Shown here piece after piece: positions 2,203 through 58,770 of a stretch of 64,000 nucleotides of DNA. Each line of letters begins with the position of its first letter. The stretch's first letter is position 1. Both the position numbers and the translations under genes were made by a program. The notes below the pieces were generated by a model that did no database searches, was not told where the DNA came from, and saw nothing but the letters and a program-made list of their open reading frames with translations. The stretch comes from Patescibacteria group bacterium (GTDB lineage Bacteria; Patescibacteriota; Microgenomatia; UBA12405): contig WARW01000022.1 in NCBI GenBank assembly GCA_013387215.1, positions 238,417 through 302,416 on the forward strand, given 5' to 3'.

Positions 2203-5200
2203 TTATTTTACAATTTGATTTTTACCCACAGGTATTAATCGTCCGATAATAACATTTTCTTTAAGACCAATCAAGCCGTCTACTTCCGCAAGCAAGGATG
2301 CTTCGGTTAAAACGCTAGTTGTCTGTTGGAATGAAGCAGCAGATAACCATGAGCCAGTGGTTAAAGCAGATTGGATAAGACCCAATAAGACTTTTTTACC
2401 TTTAGCTGGTTTACCACCTTCAGATTTTGCCTTTTCATTGGCTGCATTGTATACAGCAGCAGTGGTGATTTGGCCATATAAGAAGTTGGTGTCACCTGGA
2501 TCTTCAACTTTAATCTTGTCGCTCATTTCTTTAACGATAACTTCAAGATGTTTGTCGTGGATACCGATACCCTGAGATTCGTAAACAGCTTGGATGCTGT
2601 TGATAAGGTATTTTTGAGCAGCTTCGATACTCTTAACATCCATGATTTCTCGAACATCGAGAGAACCTGAACAAAGTTGAGTACCTTGAGCAACTAAATC
2701 ACCATCGGAAACTAAGAGGGTAACGTTGGATGGTAAAAGATAAGTAATAGTTTTGGTGGTATTAGACTCATCTTTACCAGTGAGTTTAATTTCGTAACCA
2801 TCAATAGATTCTTTTACTTTGATCTTTCCACTGATTTCTGCTAATGGAGAAGGTAATTTTGGAGTTCGAATTTCGAATAATTCCTGAACACGTGGTAAAC
2901 CTTGAGTAACGTCGACGCCGACGACACCTCCGGTGTGCTTGGTACGAAGAGTTAACTGGGTACCTGGTTCACCAATAGATTGAGCAGCGATAACACCGAC
3001 TGGAACTCCGATTTCAACTAATTTTCGGGTGGAAAGATCCCAACCGTAACATTGTTGACAAAGACCGGTTTCAGCAGCACAGGTTAAAGCAGATCGGATG
3101 TCTACAGAAGTAATATTGTGAGATTCGATATCAGCAACAACATTGTTGTCTAATAAAGTACCTTTGGCAAATAAAACTTTCTTGGTTTTGGCATCAATAA
3201 TATCGTTAGCTAAAACTCGGCCTAAAATTCGGCGAGAGAAATAGCGTTCTCTTCCCTTTTCATTAGCTTCAACAGTAATGAATTTTTTGGTGCCACAGTC
3301 ATCTTGTCTAATAATAGAAATATGAGCAGCATCAACAAGTCTTCGGGTTAAGTAACCTGCATCAGCGGTTTTCAAAGCGGTATCGGCCAAACCTTTTCTG
3401 GTTCCTCTAGCACCGGTAACGTATTCGAAAACTGACAAACCTTCACGGAAGTTTGATTTGGTTGGAAGTTGAACGATTCGACCAGTTGGATCGACCATTA
3501 AACCTCTCATACCAGAAAGCTGTTTGATTTGATCTTTAGATGCACGCTTGATACCTGCAGCAGAAACGATACGGATTGGAGAATCGATATCGAGAGTTGC
3601 CCAAGTTTTTTCAGCGATTTCTTCGGTTTTTTCCATCCAAACAGATTGACTTAATCTCTTCTTTTCTTCATTGGAAATTAATCCCATTTTGTAGTTATCT
3701 TCAATTTCAGCAACTTGCTTGTTTGCACCAGCAATAATACTGTCTTTTTCTTGTAAGTGACCACAATCTGCCATAGATAAGGAAAGACCAGAAATAGTGA
3801 AACCTTTGAAACCAATGTCTTTTAAGGAATCAATAAGTTTTACAGTCTTAACTCTTCCAGCAATTTCAAGTGATTTAACGACTAAATCGTTAACAGCCTT
3901 GGAACCAGCCATAGATTCGTTAACAAAACTGAATTCTTTTGGAAGGATTTTATTGAACCAAATTCGGCCGTAAGTGGTTTTGATTAATTTACCGTCCATT
4001 CTGACGACAATTAATTCACGTAAACCGATTTTCTTAGCTTCGTAAGCAAGTTCAACTTCTTTAACGTCTGAGAAAATAGATAAACCTTCAAAGCTTTCGG
4101 ATTTTTCTTTTTCAAGATCTTCAGATTGAACAGAAGTGATGTAATAACATCCGACTGCCATTTCTTGGGTAGGAACTGAAACTGGAGAACCGTCAGCAGG
4201 TTTAAGTAAGTTTCGAGAAGGCAACATTAATTTCTTGGCTTCTTTTTGTGAAGCTTCAGATAATGGTAAATGGACACCCATTTGATCTCCGTCGAAATCG
4301 GCGTTGAAACCTTTACAGACACATGGATGTAGTCTGATGGCTAAACCGTCAACCAAAATTGGTTTAAATGCTTGAATTGAGAGTTTGTGAAGGGTTGGAG
4401 CGCGGTTTAATAAGACGTGACTGTCTTTGGTAACCTTTTCCAAAATATCGTAAACCTCGTTAGCTCGGTGATCAATTAAGTTTTTAGCAGATTTGATGTT
4501 TGGAGCAATGCCAGTAGACATTAATTCACGCAAAACAAATGGTCTGTAGATTTCGAGAGCAATTTCTTTTGGTAAACCGACTTGGTTAAGTTTAAGTTCT
4601 GGACCGACAACGATAACAGAACGACCTGAGTAATCGACACGTTTACCTAAAAGATTTCGTCGGAAACGACCTTTCTTACCTCTTAAGAGATCAGAAAGGG
4701 ATCTTGGAGTTCTTTTAGTACTTTTTCTTTTATTCTTAGCACTCTTTTGAGCATCAATTAAAATGTCGACAGATTCCTGCAACATTCTTTTTTCGTTGCG
4801 CAAAATAATTTCTGGAGCACCAAGTTTAAGAAGTTTCTTTAAACGGTTATTACGATTAATTAATCTTCGATATAAATCATTTAAATCAGAAGTGGCAAAT
4901 CGGCCGCCAGTAAGTTGGACCATAGGTCGTAAATCTGGTGGAATAACTGGAACATTGGTCATGATCATCCATTCTGGATGGATTTCATTTTCAATCATTC
5001 CATTCAAAATTCTGATCTTGTACATGATTTTCTTTTTCTTGAGTTTGGAAGTGGTTTTAGCTAATTCTTTCTTAAGATTTTTGACAGTTTCTTTAAGATC
5101 GATTTTCTTTAAAACTTCAACTAAAGCTTCAGCACCCATTTTAGCTTCGAAGAAAAGATCTGCCTTAAATTGGGAAAGATAGAAAGATTCTTCATCAGAA

Positions 5201-11945: not shown

Positions 11946-11977
11946 CCTGCGTGCTGTTTTTTCCGTATTTTCCGCTA
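11945..11977. repeat. Repeat copy A', right boundary of unit 1: the inverted partner of copy A, without the GC hairpin
   Basis: ACCTGCGTGCTGTTTT at 11945-11960 and TTTTCCGCTA at 11968-11977 are the reverse complements of the copy A segments. Confidence 0.7.
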
Positions 11978-12120
11978 TTTAAAAGAACTGTTTGCATATT
12001 CTAGGAATTAAAGGGCAGCTAAAGCCATTATAGAATAATGCAACTATCATTTTATGAATAATTTTTATGATGTATATTACAAACATGTAAGAATACGGTA
12101 AGATAGGGATTTAGTATCAA

Positions 12121-45418: not shown

Positions 45419-45682
45419 TTAAAAAATATTTTGAGGGGTAACAATTTTGCCAGTTTCGATTGCTTGACGATATCTTGCCTCATCTGAGGATAAAATCCAC
45501 AGACCGTGAGAAAAGTTTGAACCGTAATACTGTTTGATTCCTTGATCTTCAATCTGTTTCAAAAAATTGGCAATGTCGAGGCGATCTTGGTCGATTCCAC
45601 CAGGATAAAAAGAAAAAATGCAGGTAGTATTTTTGCGTCTGATTTCTTTGAGACTAATACCATTAAGGCAAAACTGATTCAT
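45419..45682 (-). CDS. Hypothetical small protein
   Basis: 87-aa ORF. Confidence 0.4.
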   Translation of the reverse strand: MNQFCLNGISLKEIRRKNTTCIFSFYPGGIDQDRLDIANFLKQIEDQGIKQYYGSNFSHGLWILSSDEARYRQAIETGKIVTPQNIF

Positions 45683-45712
45683 AAGAAAACAACTCCCTTT
45701 CGTTTTTTATTT

Positions 45713-46003
45713 TTATAGATTATTGAGATCGATTTTTTTCAATTTTAGTTGACTATCTTTGGAAACTACCTGAAAAAGTGTATCCGTTAAAGTGACGGTG
45801 TCTTCTTCAAAAATAGAGAAAATCAAGTTGTTGTCTAAATAAAAATCTACAGATGATTCGCCAAAAGCAACATCAATTCGGGTTTTTCCTGCAATATTAG
45901 TACAGATATTTTGACTGCCAGTTAAGGTTAGATTAAAAGGTGTTTCGACAAATCTTTTCAACAATAGGTAGTTTGTGGCCATTAAAGTTGCCCATCGAGA
46001 CAT
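45713..46003 (-). CDS. Hypothetical small protein
   Basis: 96-aa ORF. A strong SD, TAAGGAGGTGA, lies 6-8 nt upstream of clustered ATGs at 46003-46011. Confidence 0.45.
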   Translation of the reverse strand: MSRWATLMATNYLLLKRFVETPFNLTLTGSQNICTNIAGKTRIDVAFGESSVDFYLDNNLIFSIFEEDTVTLTDTLFQVVSKDSQLKLKKIDLNNL

Positions 46004-46203
46004 ACATACTCACCTCCTTAAAACACAAAAGCCTGATTATTAAAGAACAAAAATTGTCTATCTTGCGTATAAAATAGCAATTTGTAAGTAGCAGATCTTA
46101 TCATATTTCCAAAAAAAATGCCGACTGGAGTTTGAATATTAATATTCAAAACCTATCGGCATTGTGATAATTTATCAACTTAAATGGAAAGAAAAATATC
46201 GTA

Positions 46204-46632
46204 TTACGAAAAAAACTGTCGGCCAGCATAAAGAATAGAGTTTTGAATCGCATAATCAATTCCAGCAATCTGTAGCAAAAAACTGCTTTCTAATGCAGGA
46301 AGCTCGACATTGTTGAACTTAAGGACGATTATGGCTGGATAATTAAGTTTCTTTAGATCTACGGGTTTGACGTTTTTCCTGAGGGCTTTTTTGATGCAAT
46401 CAAAATAATCATACGAAACCGAAATTTTGTTTCTTTCGTCCAGATTGTAGTCCTGACCTGCTGAATACAAAAGAGATTTTATTTTTTCCGGATTCAGTTT
46501 GACAGCATCTTTGTTTGGCATTCCTAATACCACTATCTCTAAGAGATTAGGGTTGTTTAGACTGTCTTTGGGAACATTATGACCTGTCATATTAACACCT
46601 CCTTTCATCGATACTGACCGGCTATTAAGCAA
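46204..46632 (-). CDS. Hypothetical protein. The likely true start is MTGHNV... at about 46590.
   Basis: A strong SD, GAAAGGAGGTG, precedes the internal ATG. A long palindromic terminator follows the gene at about 46120-46165. Confidence 0.45.
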   Translation of the reverse strand: MLNSRSVSMKGGVNMTGHNVPKDSLNNPNLLEIVVLGMPNKDAVKLNPEKIKSLLYSAGQDYNLDERNKISVSYDYFDCIKKALRKNVKPVDLKKLNYPAIIVLKFNNVELPALESSFLLQIAGIDYAIQNSILYAGRQFFS

Positions 46633-46718
46633 GCACCATAAATCAAGATTGAGCCTATCAGTAAAAATATCCCAGCGATTAGAAATATTCTCCGTTTCAC
46701 AAGATCAACTCCCTTCAT
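46615..46718 (-). CDS. Tiny hydrophobic peptide of about 34 aa. It is not in the ORF track.
   Basis: My own translation: MKGVDLVKRRIFLIAGIFLLIGSILIYGACLIAGQYR*, a single TM helix. Confidence 0.25.
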
Positions 46719-46839
46719 TTCTCTTTTCCAATGTGACTTTTTCCGGAATATAGGCAAAAAATAATCCGACAGAGTACACTTGAAAACTGGAACACAACAA
46801 AACTAAAACCAACAAACAAGACAAAATCTTTCGATTCAT
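46705..46839 (-). CDS. Tiny hydrophobic peptide of about 44 aa. It is not in the ORF track.
   Basis: My own translation: MNRKILSCLLVLVLLCSSFQVYSVGLFFAYIPEKVTLEKRNEGS*, preceded by the SD AAAGGAGGGG. Confidence 0.3.
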   Translation of the reverse strand: MNRKILSCLLVLVLLCSSFQVYSVGLFFAYIPEKVTLEKRNEGS

Positions 46840-47064
46840 TTTCAAATCCCCTCCTTTTATATTTAGTTGATAGATTTTAAAAGAACGACTAATAAATTAT
46901 TATTCTTTGCAAAATTAAAGAATTGATTTATTTTTGGTTAATTGCCAAAGAAAAAAAGTCAAAAAAACTGCTTTTCTTTTGTAATTAAAATATAAAATCC
47001 GTAAAACTAATGTGTGCCCTAAAAAGGGAGAGAATTGAGCAGAAGCCCAATCCTCTTTTTGTTT

Positions 47065-47565
47065 TCAGTTCAAAAACTGATCAAGGTGGTTTAACAAGTG
47101 GTCAAGCTTCAACAACACTGTAGGAATTTGATCGGAATATTTAAGTTCAAGGCAAAACTCGACAACATAAGCATCAGTAATAATGCGATCGATGTCTTGA
47201 GTCAAAGTCTCATTCATCTTTTGAAGATATTTTTGATCTTCTTTTCCGGTTCGACGACGAAGCCAAGATTCAAAATTTTTGACTTCATCATCCCTTTCAT
47301 ATTGAGGAAATAATTCCCAAGCCGCAGCCGTTCTTCTAGAGAATAATCCCGGATTTCCAGTCATATCCAAAAGAGCATCAATTGTTGATAAACGATAATT
47401 GTTTATTTCTTCCTCTGCCAATGGATTACTCTCGATTTTAACGTAATAATCGGCAAGTATAGCAACTGCTTTATTGAGCATCTCGTCGGTTATTTTAGTA
47501 AAACCTATTCTTTTGGAAAAGAAATCAACCAGATATAAATAAGATTCTGAAATATTTGTCAACAT
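47065..47565 (-). CDS. Hypothetical protein
   Basis: 166-aa ORF with the SD AAGGAG and predicted helical composition. Confidence 0.5.
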   Translation of the reverse strand: MLTNISESYLYLVDFFSKRIGFTKITDEMLNKAVAILADYYVKIESNPLAEEEINNYRLSTIDALLDMTGNPGLFSRRTAAAWELFPQYERDDEVKNFESWLRRRTGKEDQKYLQKMNETLTQDIDRIITDAYVVEFCLELKYSDQIPTVLLKLDHLLNHLDQFLN

Positions 47566-47643
47566 AAAAAAACACTCCTTATAATTTTTATTTTGAAACT
47601 TTCTACTTATATTTTTCTAATGAGTGTTTATGAAGCGTTACCA

Positions 47644-47754
47644 CAATTTATCTAAACCCCAAATCATGAATGTCAAAAACAATGACAAGCCAAATAGGAT
47701 TATTAGCGCAATTTTTTCATTTCGGTTGTATTTTTTAAAATGTTTCATGTTCTC
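47644..47754 (-). CDS. Tiny membrane peptide of 36 aa. It is not in the ORF track.
   Basis: My own translation: MKHFKKYNRNEKIALIILFGLSLFLTFMIWGLDKLW*, preceded by the SD AAGAGGTGA. Confidence 0.3.
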
Positions 47755-47759
47755 ACCTC

Positions 47760-48152
47760 TTAAAATAATGATTTCTGACTCCACTGATTAAAAACAGCAA
47801 GGTCTTCATCACCAAATAAAGCTTGATAACATTCGTTTCTAACCAAAAGAGATTCATCGAGCTCTAAAAAATCCAAAACCCAATAAATCGTTTCGGTTTT
47901 TAGTTTAAAAATAGTGTCTTGAGACTCACGATCATCATAAGTTTTAATGTCGATTCGATGCAGTGTTTTGATTAATGCATCAATTGCTTCGTCCGCTTCT
48001 TGATATTTTTTTAGTCCTAAGTGTTTAGCAAGATATTCCAGCGCGTTTTGATGAGCTTTTGGGAAATAAATTACCTTAAAGTTCTCAGCTCCGCCCATTT
48101 TTTCGATGAGTGTAGAGTAAAACTCCTTTTCGTGATTAGACATATGCAACAC
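47760..48152 (-). CDS. Hypothetical protein
   Basis: 130-aa ORF with the SD GAGAGGTG. Confidence 0.5.
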   Translation of the reverse strand: MLHMSNHEKEFYSTLIEKMGGAENFKVIYFPKAHQNALEYLAKHLGLKKYQEADEAIDALIKTLHRIDIKTYDDRESQDTIFKLKTETIYWVLDFLELDESLLVRNECYQALFGDEDLAVFNQWSQKSLF

Positions 48153-48342
48153 CTCTCTTTTTATTCCAAAAATATTTCTATTTTTGGTATGTACACAAAG
48201 AGTTTTACGGATTTTTAAAGAACAAACCTTTTTTTAAAGCGCTTTGCTTTTAAAAGTTTTTAATTTAATGATAATTAAATTATGTGCCGTATATATACTC
48301 TTAATTACCAATGAAATCAAGATATAGGTTATATTTTTTATA

Positions 48343-48645
48343 TCAGCGGACAAAAACCAGAAGGACTACAAACAACCCAGTTAATAAAATGAAGCTAAGC
48401 AAAGCCAACTGATGAAAGAAGAGAAGCAAAATAAGTCCAAGAATATATATAGATATTATAAAATTTATTTTGAAGCGTTTTAAAAAAATGTATATTGTGG
48501 ATAAAACAGCGGTAAACAAAAGTATAAAAAATATTATTTTTGCAGCCAGAGTGCTAGGAGCAACAGTGCAAAAAAATATAATCCAAGAAAGCCAAATTAC
48601 AGAACAGATGATTGGCCAATAATATAGTTTTTCGGTTTTATTCAT
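48343..48645 (-). CDS. Integral membrane protein
   Basis: 100 aa with 3 TM helices. Confidence 0.45.
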   Translation of the reverse strand: MNKTEKLYYWPIICSVIWLSWIIFFCTVAPSTLAAKIIFFILLFTAVLSTIYIFLKRFKINFIISIYILGLILLLFFHQLALLSFILLTGLFVVLLVFVR

Positions 48646-49957: not shown

Positions 49958-50611
49958 ATGACAATAAATACTGCTGAATTAAATCAAATACAAAGTGCTG
50001 AAATTACTGGAAATTCCGAAATAGTGGAAAAATCTAAGAAGGGATTGAAGGTATTAAAAGAAAAACTAGAAAAACTGGGCACAATAGAAAATCTAACCCC
50101 ACTAGATTCACGTCCTTTGGATCCATCTGAAGTACCTGCTTTTAATACAATTTGGAAAGATTTTACTTTTAGTGAAATGGAAAAATGGAGAGCATACTCT
50201 CGCATTCCCGATTGGGAAGGACTTTGGTCAGGACAGACTGATGAAAATGGATTAAGCACTGTCTATGAAATTCACGTAAAAAACGGTGGACATTTAGATA
50301 ATGATAAAGATGGAAAAAATAGAATAGATGAGGTTTTCATAATAAAGACTGTGGGCAGAATGGAAGAACTTGAGTTTTCTACAAAAGAGCCAATTACGAT
50401 TGAATCCGAATTTAAAAAACTAAATCATACACCACCGTTAGATATAAATACTGATGGAGGTTATCAGGTCGCAATTAGGTATGACAGTGCAAAAGGGCTT
50501 TCGAGCAGTACGGCTGAAAATATTAGGCTTGATGTGGGAGCTTCAAGGGACCGCTATGGTCTTCCGAGCGAACCAGAAAAACATATTCACAGTTTATATT
50601 ACAAACTGTAG
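49958..50611 (+). CDS. Hypothetical protein on the plus strand
   Basis: 217-aa ORF with no recognisable motifs. Confidence 0.45.
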   Translation: MTINTAELNQIQSAEITGNSEIVEKSKKGLKVLKEKLEKLGTIENLTPLDSRPLDPSEVPAFNTIWKDFTFSEMEKWRAYSRIPDWEGLWSGQTDENGLSTVYEIHVKNGGHLDNDKDGKNRIDEVFIIKTVGRMEELEFSTKEPITIESEFKKLNHTPPLDINTDGGYQVAIRYDSAKGLSSSTAENIRLDVGASRDRYGLPSEPEKHIHSLYYKL

Positions 50612-51159
50612 TTTTTTTTCTGGATTATATTTTTAATCTCTTGCCTAATTGATTCGATTTGGGCGATTCTGTCATTATCTTCAACAATTTGTTCGGCAGT
50701 TCTTGGCTGATTTTCATTTAAATTATACTGATAAATGATACTATCAACACATCCAAATAGAGGTTGATCTAGGCTGGAAATTTGATCAGTAATGGCATGT
50801 TTAACAGTGCCATCATAAAGTGTAACCTCAACTGGAACAAATTTACGCCATCCTCCTACTTCTTCCCAATCTTTTAATTTGGAAAATTCTTCTGGTGTAA
50901 GCTGCCAAAAGATACCAGTAACCAACCCATTGCCAGGAATAATTGTATAAGCTAAAAATTTTTTTCCCCAGACTGTTTTAAGAATACTTTTAGCAGGTTC
51001 CGGTATTTGATTAAGGGTTTGGATAGCTAATTTGGAGTTATAAATCAGACCACCAATTTTTTTCTCCGGCAAGTGACCAATAATTTCCTTAATTCTATTT
51101 GGATTAGCATTAGCTCCATAACCAAAATAGGATATATAGTCCATAAAAAAGTATAACAA
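50599..51159 (-). CDS. Gamma-glutamyl cyclotransferase-like (AIG2/GGCT fold) protein
   Basis: N-terminal YFGYGANANPNRI matches the GGCT YFxYGSNxN motif. Confidence 0.65.
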   Translation of the reverse strand: MLYFFMDYISYFGYGANANPNRIKEIIGHLPEKKIGGLIYNSKLAIQTLNQIPEPAKSILKTVWGKKFLAYTIIPGNGLVTGIFWQLTPEEFSKLKDWEEVGGWRKFVPVEVTLYDGTVKHAITDQISSLDQPLFGCVDSIIYQYNLNENQPRTAEQIVEDNDRIAQIESIRQEIKNIIQKKNYSL

Positions 51160-54600: not shown

Positions 54601-54847
54601 TATTTAATAGGCGCTGGCGCATAGCAACGGTGCCAGTTTCAGTGAAGGTGAGACACAAAATGCTTTGGGGTGGAGTTTGAGTTTTGAGAAGAATATTGGC
54701 AATTCTTAAGGCAATAGTTTGGGTTTTACCAGTTCCCGCTCCAGCAATAACCATAACTGGACCTTCGATAGTGTCGACAGCCAGTTTTTGTTCGGCGTTA
54801 AGCTTCTGATATTCGGAATTAAATTTTTCTTGGCTAATTTTTTCCAC
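51641..54847 (-). CDS. UvrD/PcrA-family SF1 helicase fused to a C-terminal RecB-like (PD-(D/E)xK, Cas4/AddB-type) nuclease domain
   Basis: Walker A AGAGTGKT, VDEYQDTN, and TTHRSKGLEFEHVFL (motifs V/VI). The C-terminal ~300 aa contain IDKIE...VVDFKTG (D...(D/E)xK) and Cys residues (CPWC...DCDC...C) compatible with an Fe-S nuclease module. Confidence 0.8.
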   Translation of the reverse strand: MEKISQEKFNSEYQKLNAEQKLAVDTIEGPVMVIAGAGTGKTQTIALRIANILLKTQTPPQSILCLTFTETGTVAMRQRLLNIIGPVAYSIKIHTFHSFCNEVIKTNPESFIFAKDIDSLEELEKIEIIQNIIENLKDGSILKPWGDHFYYQRDIISCIQTLKRENIIPAKLETLINDQKKYLDLTNDVYCQIKALKASKSLESELLPIVENAKKIASKFPSIFALINYYQELYKNGFYDIGAAKSPAVNYKNALIKYFENLAKDIPKQFELLNIYTEYQAELKKRGRYDFDDMILFVLNQFKENKDLLASYQERFQYILVDEYQDTNSAQNQIIHLLGSYFENPNLFVVGDDDQSIFRFQGAAIENIYEFYLLYKAQIKLIVLKNNYRSHQLILDSSKSVIDNNKNRIANFIENLDKSLVSSKTFDPTPINLFQAKSVLEENYYVANKIKKLIESGTKPSEIAVLVRNNSDIIDLVETLTNLGIKYHLGFGENILEDVRIQQLIKLLAYVNNPSDDNVLFHILSFDFLNINSYDLLKILRFAYHEHISLSELIADKEKLLLISPKLRPSTITKISNFSVRMAKAIKWLDNYSLDTFYNKFIRKFGYLSYILSLNDFFVINHLNVFYSELKRLSLTKNYDLPQFIARINLLVENKIPLSAPELNSEYEDAINIMTTHRSKGLEFEHVFLIKCVDKKWGNNTQFSNIRLPYGILKTELLRQAIDENEDERRLFYVALTRAKNQVYISFSCKSDSGRDQIPSLFASEINPESIENVVADPNIEKLALLASMPLDPKPFITDNQLEKYLRWYLTNEYKFNVTHLNSYLRCPWCFYHKTILRIPALKNKHSALGTAVHNSLSYLFDKLKETKKLISEADLLNSFNKYLLRENLSHLEFSESLSRGQEILASYYQNYKDTFDCDCVTEYDFSHDHVHLGDIPLTGKIDKIEVLGMNSNGKPDANVVDFKTGNPDTKSKELKENGEYFRQLVFYKILADNNPNFKYNVVSGSIDFVQKSKLKNNFVKKDFKITEEQIKELETLIKDIYKKIINLEFNSLGEDCRDDQDLHALLK

Positions 54848-55084
54848 TACCCTATTTTACCAAGCGGAGCTGTATTAGCGCGAATACAATTTGATGACAG
54901 TAACGGCAATGATGACAAAGGAACAAAGCACAATAAGAAAAAATTGATTATTCTCGTCTACTTTCTTTTTATTTTTTTTGGGCATAAATAATTGTAAACA
55001 AACGATTGGTAAAAAACAATGTAAGCAAAAAAAATACCCGCCAAGTTGTTTTTATAAAAAAACAATTGGCAGGTTTGCCTCAAT

Positions 55085-55453
55085 TTATTGGATGATGCGT
55101 TCTATGGTGAATTTGGAAAAATTTGGTTCATTACCCAATAAGGGTTTATAACCTAGAGACATCAAAAGCGGCGCAGAGAGATTGATAATATACCAACGGG
55201 TTTCGGATTGAATAAGGTTGATACCATTGAAAATTTGATCAGCATCGACTTCTATAGTTTCGATTTCGCCCTTTTTTTCAAATACACGATTTTGTATTTG
55301 ACTTATTAAGGCTTTAATTATCTTTTGTGCTTTCTGACAAGTCCCCTGTTCAGTGATCAGCTTGTTGATCTGCTGTTCCCGACTTGTAATTTGGTTTTCA
55401 AAGTAAGAAACGATTTTATTGTCGGAGCTTTCATTTTGGTCCATAAAAACCAC
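55085..55453 (-). CDS. Hypothetical small protein
   Basis: 122-aa ORF with the SD GAAAGGTGG and its own TTGACA-16-TAAAAT promoter. Confidence 0.5.
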   Translation of the reverse strand: MVFMDQNESSDNKIVSYFENQITSREQQINKLITEQGTCQKAQKIIKALISQIQNRVFEKKGEIETIEVDADQIFNGINLIQSETRWYIINLSAPLLMSLGYKPLLGNEPNFSKFTIERIIQ

Positions 55454-55493
55454 CTTTCACATTTTATTAAATTGAGATTTAAGGTACAGCGGG

Positions 55494-55521
55494 ATTTTAC
55501 CTTATTTTAGGAAAATGTCAA
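55494..55521 (-). promoter_or_regulatory. Promoter TTGACA-N16-TAAAAT for the gene at 55085..55453
   Basis: On the minus strand, TTGACA is the revcomp of 55516-55521 and TAAAAT the revcomp of 55494-55499. Confidence 0.45.
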
Positions 55522-55525
55522 AAAT

Positions 55526-56257
55526 TTAATAAATTAATTTGATGTGCGTAGGTAATATTTTGGAAAGGCGATCGATTTCTGTTTGGCTTATTGAAGAACT
55601 TCTAACGTCGAGTTCCTCTAGTGCAGCCATGTTTTTAATTCCATCGGGCAGAACCGCAATTTGAGTTCCTAAAATTGATAATTTTTTAAGTTTTTTTAGT
55701 TTTAGAATGCTTTGAGGAAAATCGGTTAAAGGATTAAAAGACAAATCTAGTTCTTCAAGATTTTGCAAATCTCCAAGTGAATCAGCAACAGTGCTAATTC
55801 GATTTGAACTTAAGGACAAATACTTGAGATTATCTAAACTGCCAAGCGGAGCTGGGATGGAAGTTAAGGAACCGTCAATATTGTGAAGATACTCAAGTTT
55901 TTTCAAACTAGAAATCTGGGGAGGGATTGTATGAATTGAAATGCGGCAAAGCTCTAAATATTTCAAATTAGTATACTGAGAAATTTCTTTTAATAAAAGA
56001 AAATCATCGCCTTGAAAAGCATAATGACCGGTACATAAATCTATTTTTATTACTTTAGCCGGATCTTTTAGAGCTTCTTCGCGATTCGAATCAGGGGTCG
56101 CGTCAACAATTTCCTGAATCGTTTTGACTGAATTAGAAACTGGTTTTTTAGGACTGACAATAATCGGTGTTGAGGAGTTAATAAAATAAATTGCAAAAAA
56201 CATAAAAACACAAAAGCCAGATAAAAGTAAAATAAATCCGTTTTTATGGTTTCGCAT
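55526..56257 (-). CDS. Leucine-rich-repeat (LRR) protein with an N-terminal membrane anchor
   Basis: N-terminal TM, then tandem LxxLxLxxN repeats (LEELDLSFNPLTDFP, LKKLSILGTQIAVLP...). Confidence 0.75.
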   Translation of the reverse strand: MRNHKNGFILLLSGFCVFMFFAIYFINSSTPIIVSPKKPVSNSVKTIQEIVDATPDSNREEALKDPAKVIKIDLCTGHYAFQGDDFLLLKEISQYTNLKYLELCRISIHTIPPQISSLKKLEYLHNIDGSLTSIPAPLGSLDNLKYLSLSSNRISTVADSLGDLQNLEELDLSFNPLTDFPQSILKLKKLKKLSILGTQIAVLPDGIKNMAALEELDVRSSSISQTEIDRLSKILPTHIKLIY

Positions 56258-56357
56258 AAATTAATTATGCAATAAATTTAAAATAAAAACACTTTTTGAT
56301 AAAAAAACCCGCTAAAAGCAAAATGTTTAGCGGGTTTGGCCCAGATCCATATAGTTT

Positions 56358-56675
56358 TTAGTAATTACTTATAGTAATAACTTTTTCTTCAAACATTTTA
56401 TGGGGTGTCTGGTAGGGTAAAGAAAGTTGATAATACTTTTTTAAATAATCCTTAATAATAGGAACCACCAGATCATGAAAATTGTCTATTGTCATGTCAC
56501 TTTTAATAAACTGAGAAATTTTAATTTCAACTTTTTTCTTTTCTTCTGTTTTAAAGTTTTCCAGAATAGTTGGAATTATTTCTTTGGCTATGCCAATGAC
56601 ATAGACTTCTCTTTGATGGTCGTTTAAATGAAGGTTAAGGTTATCAAAATAAGTATCCGAATTAGATTTTTCCAA
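56358..56675 (-). CDS. Hypothetical small protein with a TTG start
   Basis: 105-aa ORF with the SD AAAGGAGG 8 nt before TTG, and its own promoter and terminator. Confidence 0.45.
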   Translation of the reverse strand: MEKSNSDTYFDNLNLHLNDHQREVYVIGIAKEIIPTILENFKTEEKKKVEIKISQFIKSDMTIDNFHDLVVPIIKDYLKKYYQLSLPYQTPHKMFEEKVITISNY

Positions 56676-56744
56676 GATACTCGCCTCCTTTCTTTTGTTT
56701 AGTTTAATGTGCCTTATTTAAGCGCTTTTGCTTAAAGTATGGGG

Positions 56745-56772
56745 ATTTTACAGGAATATTTTAGAAAGTCAA
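56745..56772 (-). promoter_or_regulatory. Promoter TTGACT-N16-TAAAAT for the gene at 56358..56675
   Basis: On the minus strand, TTGACT is the revcomp of 56767-56772 and TAAAAT the revcomp of 56745-56750. Confidence 0.45.
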
Positions 56773-56819
56773 AAAAAACCCGCTAAATTTTTTATTTTTA
56801 GCGAGTAAGGACTCAAAAA

Positions 56820-57188
56820 CTAAGATTGGGGTAGATTAAAATTTATGTAACCATTATAGAATTCGGTTTTTACTTCGATACCAAATTTTGGTTTTAAGAT
56901 TTCTTCGAATTTCAATTTCAAACTTTTTACCGATTCTTGGTCGTAATGGACGTGGGCTATTTTAAAAGCCTCCATCAAATCGACTCGAACTCTTTTGGAA
57001 CCTTTTTTGATTTGTTTCTTGTGAACCAAATCTTCAATGAATGTCGTTAAAAGCCAAATTTGAGAAAGAGACTTATCGGTTTTGCCGTTTTTTTCGCATT
57101 CATCAAGGATTTGTTTTTTTACTTGAGTAATTACGAGTTTGAATTCATTGGGATGAGACAACTTTATTATATTGTCCATATATATCAC
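56820..57188 (-). CDS. Hypothetical small protein, a paralog of 57343..57717
   Basis: 122 aa. Shared block: RVRVDLMEAFKIAHVHYD against FVQVDLAKAFELSGIIYS. The 5' UTR and promoter are also duplicated. Confidence 0.5.
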   Translation of the reverse strand: MIYMDNIIKLSHPNEFKLVITQVKKQILDECEKNGKTDKSLSQIWLLTTFIEDLVHKKQIKKGSKRVRVDLMEAFKIAHVHYDQESVKSLKLKFEEILKPKFGIEVKTEFYNGYINFNLPQS

Positions 57189-57262
57189 CTTTCTTTCTTC
57201 TACCTTTATATATTAGTTGTTGAGTTAAAGAGCAATTTTTTGGCGCATTTGCCAGGTGCGTT

Positions 57263-57290
57263 ATTTTAGCCTATTTTTTGGTAATGTCAA
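57263..57290 (-). promoter_or_regulatory. Promoter TTGACA-N16-TAAAAT for the gene at 56820..57188
   Basis: On the minus strand, TTGACA is the revcomp of 57285-57290 and TAAAAT the revcomp of 57263-57268. Confidence 0.45.
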
Positions 57291-57342
57291 AAAAATACCC
57301 CCAAAAGATTTTTATACTTTTAGAGGTCAAGATCTCAACGCG

Positions 57343-57717
57343 TTAAATAAAAGTAAATTCAAGAATTTTTTTGGGATAATTGATGGTGATTAACATGTCA
57401 TATTTTTGGCAAAGCATGGCTTCAATTTTGTCTTTACATTTTATAGCTAGGGTTGTACTGTAAATTATTCCGGATAGTTCAAAAGCTTTTGCAAGATCGA
57501 CTTGGACAAAATATTGATGTCTAAATAATTTTTTGTGTCTTAACTGAAATTCAATACCATTTATTATCATCCAAATCTTTTCCAATTCTTGAATCGATTC
57601 AACTGATTCTTTTGAGTCGTTTTTCTTTTGTTGATATTCCTTTTGTATATCTGTACAAATATTTAAAAATATTTGTTTCAACTCGACGGCTGAAAATATT
57701 TTTTCAAGTTGTTCCAT
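57343..57717 (-). CDS. Hypothetical small protein, a paralog of 56820..57188
   Basis: 124 aa. See the paralog entry above. Confidence 0.5.
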   Translation of the reverse strand: MEQLEKIFSAVELKQIFLNICTDIQKEYQQKKNDSKESVESIQELEKIWMIINGIEFQLRHKKLFRHQYFVQVDLAKAFELSGIIYSTTLAIKCKDKIEAMLCQKYDMLITINYPKKILEFTFI

Positions 57718-57784
57718 AAAACACCTACTTTCTTTTTGGGCGTTGAGTTAAAGAGCGATTTGGCGCGTTTACCAAAGTTGAATG

Positions 57785-57812
57785 ATTTTACATTAGTTCT
57801 GGCCAAAGTCAA
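57785..57812 (-). promoter_or_regulatory. Promoter TTGACT-N16-TAAAAT for the gene at 57343..57717
   Basis: On the minus strand, TTGACT is the revcomp of 57807-57812 and TAAAAT the revcomp of 57785-57790. Confidence 0.45.
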
Positions 57813-57818
57813 AAAAAT

Positions 57819-57843
57819 ACCCGTCAAAGATTTTATGACGGGT
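57819..57843 (-). terminator. Hairpin terminator after the gene at 57870..58274
   Basis: ACCCGTCAAAGATTTTATGACGGGT. On the minus strand the hairpin is followed by ATTTTTTTGACTTT. The same hairpin-plus-tail module recurs at about 56776-56805 and about 56296-56338. Confidence 0.5.
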
Positions 57844-57869
57844 TAGACCCAAAAAAATTAGAGAAAAAA

Positions 57870-58274
57870 TTAGGTTAACCTAATTCGTATAGTATCTTTT
57901 TCTTTATCAATCGTAATCCAATTACATTTTTCAGTTAAAGTTTCGTCTATCGATGGATAACTTGGACCAGATGCCCGCCTGATCCGACGACAGATATTTT
58001 CCCAGTGAGGTATTTCTACTTCATTCTCACTAATTCTTCTTTTATTAATACGGTTGTCTGACAAGACAGGGATTATAAATCCTAAAAAGAACGCGGCCCA
58101 ACCAGCACTGCAGCATTCTAACTTTAATCTTTCTAAAATAACGGCTTTTTCTTGTCTCTCTTTTTCTAGGGCATCTTTTGAATTTTCAACTTTAGCAGAA
58201 AACAAATCATTAGTCATATTCACACCTCCCAATTCTCTAATTTTAAAAATGTGCAATTTTGGAGCTATTTCCAA
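57870..58274 (-). CDS. Hypothetical small protein. The likely true start is MTNDLF at about 58215.
   Basis: The SD GGGAGGTG is 5 nt before the internal ATG, and the upstream extension overlaps the promoter. Confidence 0.45.
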   Translation of the reverse strand: MEIAPKLHIFKIRELGGVNMTNDLFSAKVENSKDALEKERQEKAVILERLKLECCSAGWAAFFLGFIIPVLSDNRINKRRISENEVEIPHWENICRRIRRASGPSYPSIDETLTEKCNWITIDKEKDTIRIRLT

Positions 58275-58281
58275 TTTAGTG

Positions 58282-58309
58282 ATTTTAGCCTAAAATCGGG
58301 AAAAGTCAA
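58282..58309 (-). promoter_or_regulatory. Promoter TTGACT-N16-TAAAAT for the gene at 57870..58274
   Basis: On the minus strand, TTGACT is the revcomp of 58304-58309 and TAAAAT the revcomp of 58282-58287. Confidence 0.45.
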
Positions 58310-58314
58310 AAGAA

Positions 58315-58770
58315 CTAAAGACTCAGTTCAAAAAATATACTACTGTCTCCATCAATTCGATCGTTTTTAATTTCTTTAGTTTGGATAAAATTTAGTGAAT
58401 TAAAAATTTTTCGTGATCCTAAATTATTGCCCCAAGTTCTAGTTTCTATTGTTTTATAATTATTTAGTTTTGCCCAAGTAATTACAAACTCAACCTGCTT
58501 TTGGCCGTAACCTTTACCTCTGTAATTTTTTAATATAAACATAGGACCGATATCCAGGAAATTGTTTTCAGGATCTAATATTAATGAAATATACCCGATG
58601 ATTTGATTATTAATTTGTGTAGAAAAAAGTTTTAAGATTTTTTTTGCTTCAAATTTTTGACAAAACTTATATGCATCAAAAAAACCATCTTTACGTGTAG
58701 GAAGAAAAAACGAACTAGATGCAACAATCAAATCCTTTATTGAATCTATTTTAATTTCTTCAATTTCCAT
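58315..58770 (-). CDS. GNAT-family N-acetyltransferase
   Basis: RGKGYG acetyl-CoA binding motif in a 151-aa protein. It overlaps the gatB end by 11 nt. Confidence 0.75.
   Translation of the reverse strand: MEIEEIKIDSIKDLIVASSSFFLPTRKDGFFDAYKFCQKFEAKKILKLFSTQINNQIIGYISLILDPENNFLDIGPMFILKNYRGKGYGQKQVEFVITWAKLNNYKTIETRTWGNNLGSRKIFNSLNFIQTKEIKNDRIDGDSSIFFELSL

Follow-up and report, generated by a model that had tools for sequence, protein, structure and literature searches.

What does a run of small genes, each with a predicted promoter of its own, do in the chromosome of a bacterium with a very small genome, and how is such a run kept? The question is raised by positions 55027-58309 of a 64,000-nucleotide (nt) stretch of DNA (contig WARW01000022.1) from a bacterium of the candidate phyla radiation (CPR). 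The whole 64-kb stretch is referred to below as the window. CPR bacteria live as obligate symbionts. Their genomes are very small, hold much uncharacterised, lineage-specific gene content, and commonly include islets rich in orphan genes. At this locus, six genes are located downstream of gatC-gatA-gatB and a GNAT acetyltransferase gene, all on the minus strand, to which the slot features described below also belong. Five of them are small (g57870, g57343, g56820, g56358 and g55085), and the sixth codes for a leucine-rich-repeat (LRR) protein. A first-pass annotation, made from the sequence alone, described the small genes as a clearly paralogous array of the kind formed by immunity or antitoxin, anti-defence or secreted effector families. 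Our analysis showed that the architecture is real and somewhat unusual; it comprises a candidate leader motif and codes for a new small protein family. The reading that we prefer, with a probability of about 0.6, is a lineage-specific accessory slot with fast turnover, filled with autonomous expression units. These units resemble morons, which Hendrix and colleagues reportedly described in phages as autonomous promoter-open reading frame (ORF)-terminator units inserted between conserved genes.

Homologous expression modules in the slot

The promoter pattern TTGACW-N16-TAAAAT was found exactly five times in the 64 kb, each time on the minus strand and in front of one of the small genes, which confirms the earlier claim that each gene has its own near-identical promoter. 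By chance, 0.08 copies are expected, and five or more copies were present in none of 100 shuffled sequences. A looser pattern (TTGAC-N17-19-TAnAAT) matched only three other sites in the window. Promoters P1 (58282-58309), P2 (57785-57812) and P4 (56745-56772) have the form TTGACT-N16-TAAAAT. P3 (57263-57290) and P5 (55494-55521) read TTGACA-N16-TAAAAT, and P5 begins 5 nt past the stop codon of the LRR gene. The spacers of the five promoters, compared over 36 nt, are 67-78% alike. This likeness goes beyond functional need and therefore indicates common ancestry of the promoters. The distance between promoter and gene, which had been called fixed, is variable (49-83 nt from the -10 box to the start codon); the constant one is the distance of 7-8 nt between the -10 box and a hairpin in the leader.

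G+C-rich stem-loops followed by a T-run, which are predicted intrinsic terminators, were found after the four genes for which they had been proposed (g57870, g57343, g56820 and g56358) and also after g55085. The 78-nt segments that hold them folded with -14.6 to -24.6 kcal/mol, and the tail GGGTWTTTTTT has four copies in the window, every one in the array. Terminator T1 (ACCCGTCA...TGACGGGT with T7; 57811-57843) has a T-run that supplies the TT of the next -35 box. T2 (CCTCTAAAAG...CTTTTGGGGG with a T-run; 57291-57326) and T3 (ACTCGCTAAA...TTTAGCGGGT with T8; 56771-56806) are fused with the next -35 box as well. Thus, in the T-tracts behind g57870, g57343 and g56820, the final TT also opens the -35 box of the following promoter. 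The merging of terminator tail and promoter had been described for four genes and was seen in three of them. In the case of g56358, the T-tail of T4 (ACCCGCTAAA...TTTAGCGGGT with T7; 56301-56335) reads TTTTTTTATCAAAAAG in place of TTGAC; behind the terminator come ATCAAAAAG and the LRR gene, with no TTGAC promoter. T5 (ACCTGCCAATTGTT...AACAACTTGGCGGGT with T8; 55027-55074) lies in the most stable of the seven 78-nt segments folded (-24.6 kcal/mol). The five predicted promoters and five predicted terminators agree with the separate transcription units proposed at first. Folding of the downstream sequence gave no hairpin with a T-run after the GNAT or LRR gene, so that read-through transcription may also reach g57870 and g55085.

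In four of the five leaders, the hairpin has a stem of 4-7 base pairs (bp) and a 6-nt loop of the form AAAnGC, and it starts at about the predicted transcription start. It is followed by a box, GCWC(A)TT..AA(C), which is extended to ...CTCAAC in g57343 and g56820. The leader of g57870 contains the hairpin TTGGA-AATAGC-TCCAA (58259-58274), which starts 7 nt after the -10 box and scores 22.5 bits with a covariance model, and the box GCACATTTTTAAA (58242-58254). Before g57343, the hairpin TTTGGT-AAACGC-GCCAAA (57759-57776) precedes the box GCTCTTTAACTCAAC (57742-57756). The same box, GCTCTTTAACTCAAC (57219-57233), stands in the leader of g56820 behind the hairpin TGGC-AAATGC-GCCA (57241-57254). 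The fourth leader, that of g56358, has the hairpin TTTAAGC-AAAAGC-GCTTAAA (56717-56736; 26.1 bits) and the box GCACATTAAA (56703-56712). A 20-nt stretch is 95% identical between the leaders of g57343 and g56820, in agreement with the reported duplication of their 5′ untranslated regions. The suggestion of a conserved cis element also held, since hairpin and box recur across slot units: the same layout was found before eight more slot genes in the related loci L081, L082, L140 and L002. Two other explanations of these motifs were discarded. A sigma-54 promoter reading of the TTGG...GC motif was judged by eye to have the wrong spacing, and the box, considered as an anti-Shine-Dalgarno partner, pairs in the g57870 leader and not consistently in the others.

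The hairpin is present in 12 of 12 units from five genomes, and in each of the 12 segments it is the best one among hairpins with a 5-6-nt loop. Its distance from the -10 box is 5-11 nt in 11 units and 19 nt in L002. The shuffle tests, combined over copies that are homologous and not independent samples, gave a Fisher p of 1.6e-9. In an ungapped alignment of eight copies, 85.7% of the cells were paired, compared with 55.8% after shuffling, and none of 500 shuffles reached the observed value. All seven stem pairs changed on both sides in this alignment, that is, by compensatory changes, and control alignments with slid partner columns were paired at 25-46%. Support for the leader hairpin thus comes from position and covariation, not from stability. 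The inner stem contains four wobble pairs (U-G or G-U) versus one C-A, which would mildly favour pairing in the sense-strand RNA. As a finder, the hairpin-only covariance model recovered its training copies, gave weak matches outside the slots and no significant score for non-training copies with 5-nt loops; therefore, the hairpin alone holds too little information.

A composite pattern of promoter and box, which was written before L140 was seen, proved specific to the slot. It matched four times in the window, three times in L081, twice in L082 and once in L140/L188, always at slot units; the rest of the window and 2.2 Mb of other loci gave no match. The terminator-promoter junction motif GGGTATTTTTTTGACWTT occurs in at least 120 metagenome contigs with one match each. 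With more than 120 such single matches, it was too generic as a probe for further arrays, and only L140 and L188 were relevant; among 130 contigs with the junction motif, only L140 and L188, which come from a close relative and cover the same slot, also contain the box. No Rfam family, tRNA included, matched at its gathering score anywhere in the 64 kb, the best score between 54800 and 58800, with an expect value (E) of 0.41, being far below the threshold. It follows from these data that the modules exist, are homologous to one another, are slot-specific in four related genomes, and flank ORFs of unrelated families.

Small proteins and turnover of the slot

The start codons adopted for the small ORFs lie 5-9 nt behind good Shine-Dalgarno sequences. 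On this basis, three of the ORFs had been drawn too long and were corrected to ATG 58217, ATG 57179 and ATG 55444. The first small gene, g57870 (57870-58217), has the Shine-Dalgarno sequence GGGAGGTG and codes for 115 amino acids (aa); its product was named family B. The next two belong to family A: g57343 (57343-57717; 124 aa), of subfamily A1, is supported by orthologs and an AlphaFold2 model, and g56820 (56820-57179; 119 aa), of subfamily A2, is its paralog. The orphans g56358 (56358-56675; 105 aa; TTG start 8 nt after GGAGG) and g55085 (55085-55444; 119 aa) are supported by codon usage. By codon usage, the annotated frame was by far the best one in all five small ORFs, with a log-likelihood per codon of +0.06 to +0.10, compared with -0.18 to -0.70 for the other five frames; the GNAT gene was comparable to the annotated frames. 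The membrane-anchored LRR protein (55526-56257; 243 aa; Pfam LRR_14, E 4e-22; N-terminal Kyte-Doolittle score 2.61) is encoded between g56358 and g55085. Consequently, the array includes the LRR gene and does not lie between it and the GNAT gene, as had been stated.

The proteins of g57343 and g56820 are paralogs, as first noticed (BLASTP E 5e-5); their local alignment score was 8.6 standard deviations above that of shuffled sequences, and 0 of 500 shuffles reached it. This is the only pair among the five for which paralogy could be demonstrated. The description of the whole array as paralogous was not upheld, because the other three proteins were unrelated to the rest by every test run: neither hhalign with 2- and 6-sequence profiles nor shuffle tests gave a significant result for g57870, g56358 or g55085. 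The joint g57343/g56820 profile, run with HMMER exhaustively against 1.84 billion representative proteins, added three credible members (P0009, P0010 and P0011, all encoded in L081-L083) and one marginal match, in accordance with lineage restriction. With L082_1157 included, family A consists of six known sequences. The orthologs of g57343 are P0009 (48% identical) and L082_1157 (39%), and those of g56820 are P0010 (34%) and P0011 (31%). No homolog of A1 was found in IMG/VR or GenBank phages, nor in the metagenome and viral contigs scanned with the A1 profile.

The AlphaFold2 model of family A, built from only five aligned sequences, reached a predicted local distance difference test (pLDDT) score of 92.3 and a predicted template-modelling score of 0.86. 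It shows two long antiparallel helices followed by a beta-alpha-alpha-beta-beta unit, in the order H-H-E-H-H-E-E (H39-61, E70-74, H75-82, H88-102, E108-113 and E118-123 among its segments). From the second helix onward, the order alpha1-beta1-alpha2-alpha3-beta2-beta3 is the canonical one of winged-helix domains. Foldseek gave no significant neighbour for family A; the best matches had E 0.35 in PDB (the TraM anti-activator) and E 0.07 in BFVD. The weak PDB matches were mostly winged-helix proteins (kleisin C-terminal domains, Stn1, p45C, ESCRT-II and SCCmec LP1413). The profile and structure comparison suggested at the outset thus yielded a confident fold for family A and no significant structural or known-family match.

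The remaining proteins gave less. The g57870 product is 25% identical over its full length to its positional ortholog L081_1554, and a central hydrophobic 19-mer (Kyte-Doolittle 1.83) makes it the only small protein of the array with a hydrophobic stretch. No signal peptide was found in any of the five. g56358 is a singleton cluster with nothing related in L081, L082 or L140, and g55085 found only itself among 5.8 billion proteins. The single-sequence AlphaFold2 model of g55085 was unusable (pLDDT 42), although the order H-H-E-H-H-E-E recurs in it. As the first-pass annotation had noted, the five proteins have no recognisable domain: nothing exceeded the cut-off in Pfam, PHROGs, PADLOC, NCBIfam or the PDB sequences. 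The best antitoxin-like match was that of g55085 to MazE, with 17.6 bits against a cut-off of 65, and PADLOC gave only coiled-coil noise for the same protein (E >= 0.0046). A word-indexed protein search with the array proteins returned only the query itself or known members. The strain occurs with 100% identity in SRR19769803 and SRR19769811. Two Logan contigs are 100% identical to the window and hold no information on strain-level variation or on the ratio of nonsynonymous to synonymous substitution rates.

The closest relatives of the window's GatB are labelled Candidatus Shapirobacteria (72% and 66% identity), and the GatB of a Joint Genome Institute (JGI) metagenome contig is 80% identical. 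The source lineage is thus most likely Candidatus Shapirobacteria. The slot is bordered by gatB on one side and by a gene for a UvrD/PcrA-like helicase (1068 aa, at 54847) on the other, and the islet defined in this way by synteny measures 3.7 kb. In every relative examined, the content of the gatB-helicase interval is different, with one to seven unrelated or fast-diverged genes. L001 has one HAD-like gene and L003 one HIT-like gene. L002 contains a small orphan gene with the same style of leader and terminator, a tiny membrane ORF and HAD. In L140, whose GatB is 80% identical to that of the window, there are a 213-aa protein, one unrelated small gene with the module, and HAD; two genes of its slot are of other families, and family A is absent from the slot. 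L082 encodes GNAT, A1, a 188-aa protein, A2 and a Germane-domain membrane protein. The interval of L081 starts with a 231-aa membrane protein and a 72-aa ORF, continues with B, A1, a 196-aa protein and a frameshifted copy of the 188-aa type, and ends with A2 and Germane. The comparison of copy number across related genomes, proposed at first, therefore revealed different gene content in each; no housekeeping family was matched, and the array is not perfectly conserved.

Between the window and L081/L082, the orthologs are only 25% (B), 39-48% (A1) and 31-34% (A2) identical. In the same genome pairs, the flanks are far more similar: 72-76% for the GatB C-terminus, 68% for GNAT and 68-84% for the helicase N-terminus. 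The fast divergence claimed earlier was thereby confirmed. Because the orthologs diverged far more than the flanks and the content varies, the slot turns over fast in both gene content and protein sequence, at a pace far above that of the flanking genes. The arrangement of B before A1, as well as the A1/A2 duplication, is older than the split of these genomes.

Several observations on individual members of the slot were made in these comparisons. The 188-aa protein of the relatives has a weak macro-domain signal (PARP14 macro domain, E 0.009). In L081 (3695-3917) and L082 (2214-2218), A2 has no promoter of its own and stands directly behind this macro-like gene, with a gap of 4 nt in L082, and the two are probably co-translated. 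In the window, from which the macro-like gene is missing, the A2 gene (g56820) has a module to itself. The L081 ortholog (3351-3905) of the 188-aa gene of L082 is interrupted by a frameshift, with SGYSSIAIPTIKSG continuing in another frame; either the gene is a pseudogene or the Logan contig was misassembled. The region upstream of the LRR gene (window 55526-56357), TTTTTTTATCAAAA...AATTTATTGNA..ATTAATT..ATG, resembles by eye that of the Germane gene in L081 (4268-4420) and L082 (2557-2700), and both the LRR and Germane proteins have an N-terminal membrane anchor. This suggests that the extracellular domain was exchanged while the 5′ end was conserved. The GNAT gene (58315-58770; Pfam Acetyltransf_1, E 6.6e-12) appears to be part of the gatCAB operon because its start overlaps the stop codon of gatB by 11 nt in the window (58760-58770) and likewise in L082 (608-618). 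It is a variable member of the slot, found in L082 (68% identical to L082_608) and not in L081, L140 or L001-L003. L001 (CAYUUU010000001.1) is titled 'uncultured Gammaproteobacteria', yet it has a GatB 73% identical to that of the window, a G+C content of 30% and the order gatB-HAD-helicase, which it has in common with the Shapirobacteria-like loci. The label of this and several other Third Party Annotation (TPA) records is probably wrong.

Competing explanations and a proposed mechanism

Two explanations assign a function to the products. According to one of them, the array is a repertoire of small, abundant inhibitors that neutralise a toxin or a defence or attack effector and were diversified in an arms race. 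The proteins are small, fast-evolving, lineage-restricted and predicted to be individually expressed, and the gene content varies among relatives; an immunity or anti-defence role is possible and compatible with this evolutionary pattern. A surface LRR protein is embedded in the array, and the slots of L081 and L082 hold the weak macro-domain proteins, one of them translationally coupled to A2; macro domains are frequent in conflict systems. Against this stand the neighbourhood, with no toxin, defence, phage, integrase or other mobile-element gene in or next to the slot, and the absence of the macro-like gene from the window. The five proteins have no match in PADLOC or PHROGs, match no known immunity or antitoxin family (the MazE score is far below its cut-off) and lack signal peptides, only two of them are paralogous, and the phage collections hold no homolog of A1. 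The functional classes first proposed thus found no direct support here, and we regard the immunity or anti-defence explanation as rather doubtful. The other explanation takes family A for small winged-helix DNA-binding regulators. The inverted repeat from +1 to +20 would then be an operator with 5-bp half-sites about 11 bp apart from centre to centre, at which a dimer represses the strong slot promoters. This agrees with the winged-helix order of the model, with the low-scoring Foldseek matches, which include the nucleic-acid-binding SCCmec LP1413, with a palindrome placed where repressors act, and with a TTGG...CCAA core in 8 of 12 copies. It is unlikely, since no structural match was significant and since several units have clearly different palindromes (such as AAAAGCT/AGCTTTT, AGCAT/ATGCT and TACGC/GCGTA), which agrees with a conserved structure and not with one conserved operator sequence. 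Moreover, the four wobbles versus one C-A favour pairing in sense-strand RNA, and L140 has the module and no family A gene in its slot.

Two further explanations concern the origin of the array. If it were a remnant of a prophage or mobile element, the genes would be true phage morons or early genes left in the chromosome. Promoter-ORF-terminator units at a place where relatives have nearly adjacent genes correspond to the definition of a moron, the G+C content of the slot is slightly lower (29-33% versus a window mean of 35.6%), and the LRR protein matches a PHROG of unknown function. Nevertheless, such an origin is very improbable. Genes for an integrase, capsid, tail, terminase or repressor are absent, as are tRNAs and att-like repeats; the codon usage is host-like; A1 has no homolog in IMG/VR or GenBank phages; and occupation of the slot in several species with orthologs in a conserved order (B then A1) argues for vertical descent. 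The other explanation is that there is no special array, only unrelated genes with the ordinary promoter and terminator signals of the organism. The junction GGGTATTTTTTTGACWTT is indeed common in metagenomes (at least 120 contigs). This explanation is hardly tenable, because within the 64 kb the exact promoter and the terminator tail are confined to the array, because spacers, leader hairpin and box are conserved beyond functional need, and because only L140 and L188 of the 130 junction-motif contigs have the box.

A number of results weigh against the accessory-slot reading that we prefer, or narrow it. Common descent of all five ORFs found no significant support, the profiles of g57870, g56358 and g55085 having matched with E 0.16-0.47. 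The leader of g55085 has neither hairpin nor box, and no structure was predicted in it. Single hairpins are weak (-4 to -9 kcal/mol; individual p 0.002-0.33), the units tested are homologous and thus not independent samples, the eight-copy hairpin alignment was anchored on the stems by hand, and the hairpin-only covariance model misses non-training copies at the level of significance (E 0.87 for L081_2070). Promoters, transcription starts and terminators were predicted from consensus sequences and folding, and family A was likened to winged-helix domains by its topology.

Under the accessory-slot reading, a unit would consist of the preceding terminator, whose T-tract forms the upstream edge of the promoter, a near-consensus sigma-70 promoter, the stem-loop, the box, the Shine-Dalgarno sequence, an ORF for a soluble protein of 105-124 aa, and its own terminator. 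Each gene would be transcribed separately, at a high level and probably constitutively; high, insulated expression is predicted for each from the combination of near-consensus promoters, 5′ hairpin, strong Shine-Dalgarno sequences and tight terminators. The hairpin would act as RNA and in the simplest case protect the 5′ end of the mRNA, and the conserved loop and box may serve as a common regulatory handle, possibly for an additional common regulator. Duplication of the regulatory module, or homologous recombination between its copies, may have enlarged and reshuffled the array. Such spread is suggested because unrelated families (B, A1, A2, g56358, the macro-like gene, and the orphans of L140 and L002) carry the module, and reshuffling because the leader of g57870 in the window is most like that of a different gene, L081_2611. 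The products are presumably small binding proteins and not enzymes. Family A probably binds a nucleic acid or a protein partner, as a helical hairpin joined to a winged-helix-like unit would suggest. A bolder extension, which we consider speculative and improbable, makes the module a portable expression-and-recombination cassette, an integrase-free analogue of an integron. Homologous recombination between copies would capture, duplicate, swap and discard small ORFs at a single fixed site of the chromosome, and one trans-acting regulator would act through the shared leader (hairpin with AAAnGC loop and GCWC-TTTAA box).

The slot is a concrete example of how tiny genomes keep and renew accessory genes, with unrelated small ORFs under one strong module at a fixed place between housekeeping genes. 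It provides a candidate cis-regulatory leader motif absent from Rfam and a new protein family of very few members, whose fold is predicted with confidence and gave no significant Foldseek match in PDB or BFVD. The compact terminator-promoter design is a possible genetic part for CPR bacteria or their hosts. If it is true that the proteins mediate host interaction or conflict, the slot marks where such functions evolve in Shapirobacteria.

Other parts of the window were also found to vary. Between about 12 kb and 62 kb, nearly all genes are on the minus strand, and gatCAB, GNAT, helicase, dUTPase, RmuC and hrcA-grpE-dnaK are the neighbours of the slot. A second islet on the minus strand (45440-48340) contains five or six small domain-less genes (81-166 aa) and two tiny membrane peptides. 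It lies between the gene of a 100-aa membrane protein (48343-48645) and hrcA (45288), a pair directly adjacent in L003. The gene at 48143 in this islet has a similar leader hairpin, AAAGC-AAAGC-GCTTT (covariance-model E 0.4), and a GTTCTTTAAA box. Between the last terminator of the slot and the helicase gene, a 36-aa ORF, MPKKNKKKVDENNQFFLIVLCSFVIIAVTVIKLYSR, with one hydrophobic helix is present on the minus strand (54875-54985). L002 has a mini-ORF at the equivalent place (11973-12101) with a similar lysine-rich N-terminus and membrane helix, and this ORF may encode a conserved unannotated small membrane protein. The stretch between dUTPase and rmuC (49958-51159) holds a 186-aa ORF on the minus strand and a 217-aa ORF on the plus strand, both domain-less, which converge with an overlap of 13 nt; this spot is also variable, with a different gene in L002. 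A link of the 186-aa ORF (50599-51159) to ADP-ribosyltransferase toxins was rejected. It had been indicated by a weak Tox-ART-HYE1 match (E 0.004, below the cut-off), and a PDB sequence search did not support it.

Comparison with known systems

Genomic islands of Patescibacteria are variable, accessory-rich regions in streamlined CPR genomes (PMC12455944). Compared with these islands (PMC12455944), the slot is a 3.7-kb islet with a reiterated module, no mobility genes and no clear compositional signature. With integrons, it shares a fixed chromosomal site, variable co-oriented small orphan ORFs, and structured repeats whose stems vary and still pair. However, no RYYYAAC...GTTRRRY attC pair was found on either strand of 54850-58400, the units have their own promoters, unlike promoterless integron cassettes, which depend on a common promoter Pc next to an IntI tyrosine recombinase, and the hairpins between ORFs are terminators with T-tracts. 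No integrase or recombinase was found among the slot genes and those neighbours that were scanned, the rest of the window not having been scanned protein by protein.

Orphan-immunity and polymorphic-toxin arrays resemble the slot in their tandem small genes, fast divergence, variable copy number and at least one paralogous pair. The slot differs from them in having no toxin gene or domain and no known Imm family (Pfam, NCBIfam), in that most of its members are not paralogs, and in that each is predicted to be monocistronic. Type II toxin-antitoxin systems are bicistronic, whereas each slot unit is predicted to be monocistronic with its own terminator, and the MazE score of g55085 was the only match of this kind.

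Stabilising stem-loops at the 5′ end of mRNAs are present in the leaders of E. coli ompA and B. subtilis aprE. The slot leaders are similar in that a short hairpin is predicted within a few nt of the transcript 5′ end, as placed by the distance from the -10 box, together with strong promoters and Shine-Dalgarno sequences. They differ in the conserved A-rich loop (AAAnGC) and the box, which are reiterated before unrelated genes at one locus.

In design, the units resemble morons. Slot genes each have a predicted sigma-70-type promoter and a factor-independent terminator around a single ORF, and the units stand between genes that are adjacent or nearly so in relatives (in L001 and L003, one unrelated gene separates gatB and the helicase). 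Their G+C content is slightly below that of the flanks, and their content varies among relatives. In contrast to morons, the slot belongs to a bacterial chromosome and has no phage genes in its surroundings (no structural or integration genes by PHROGs, and no tRNA). To our knowledge, a shared leader hairpin and box is not a described property of morons; the slot has five units in series that share a homologous module with such a 5′ leader.

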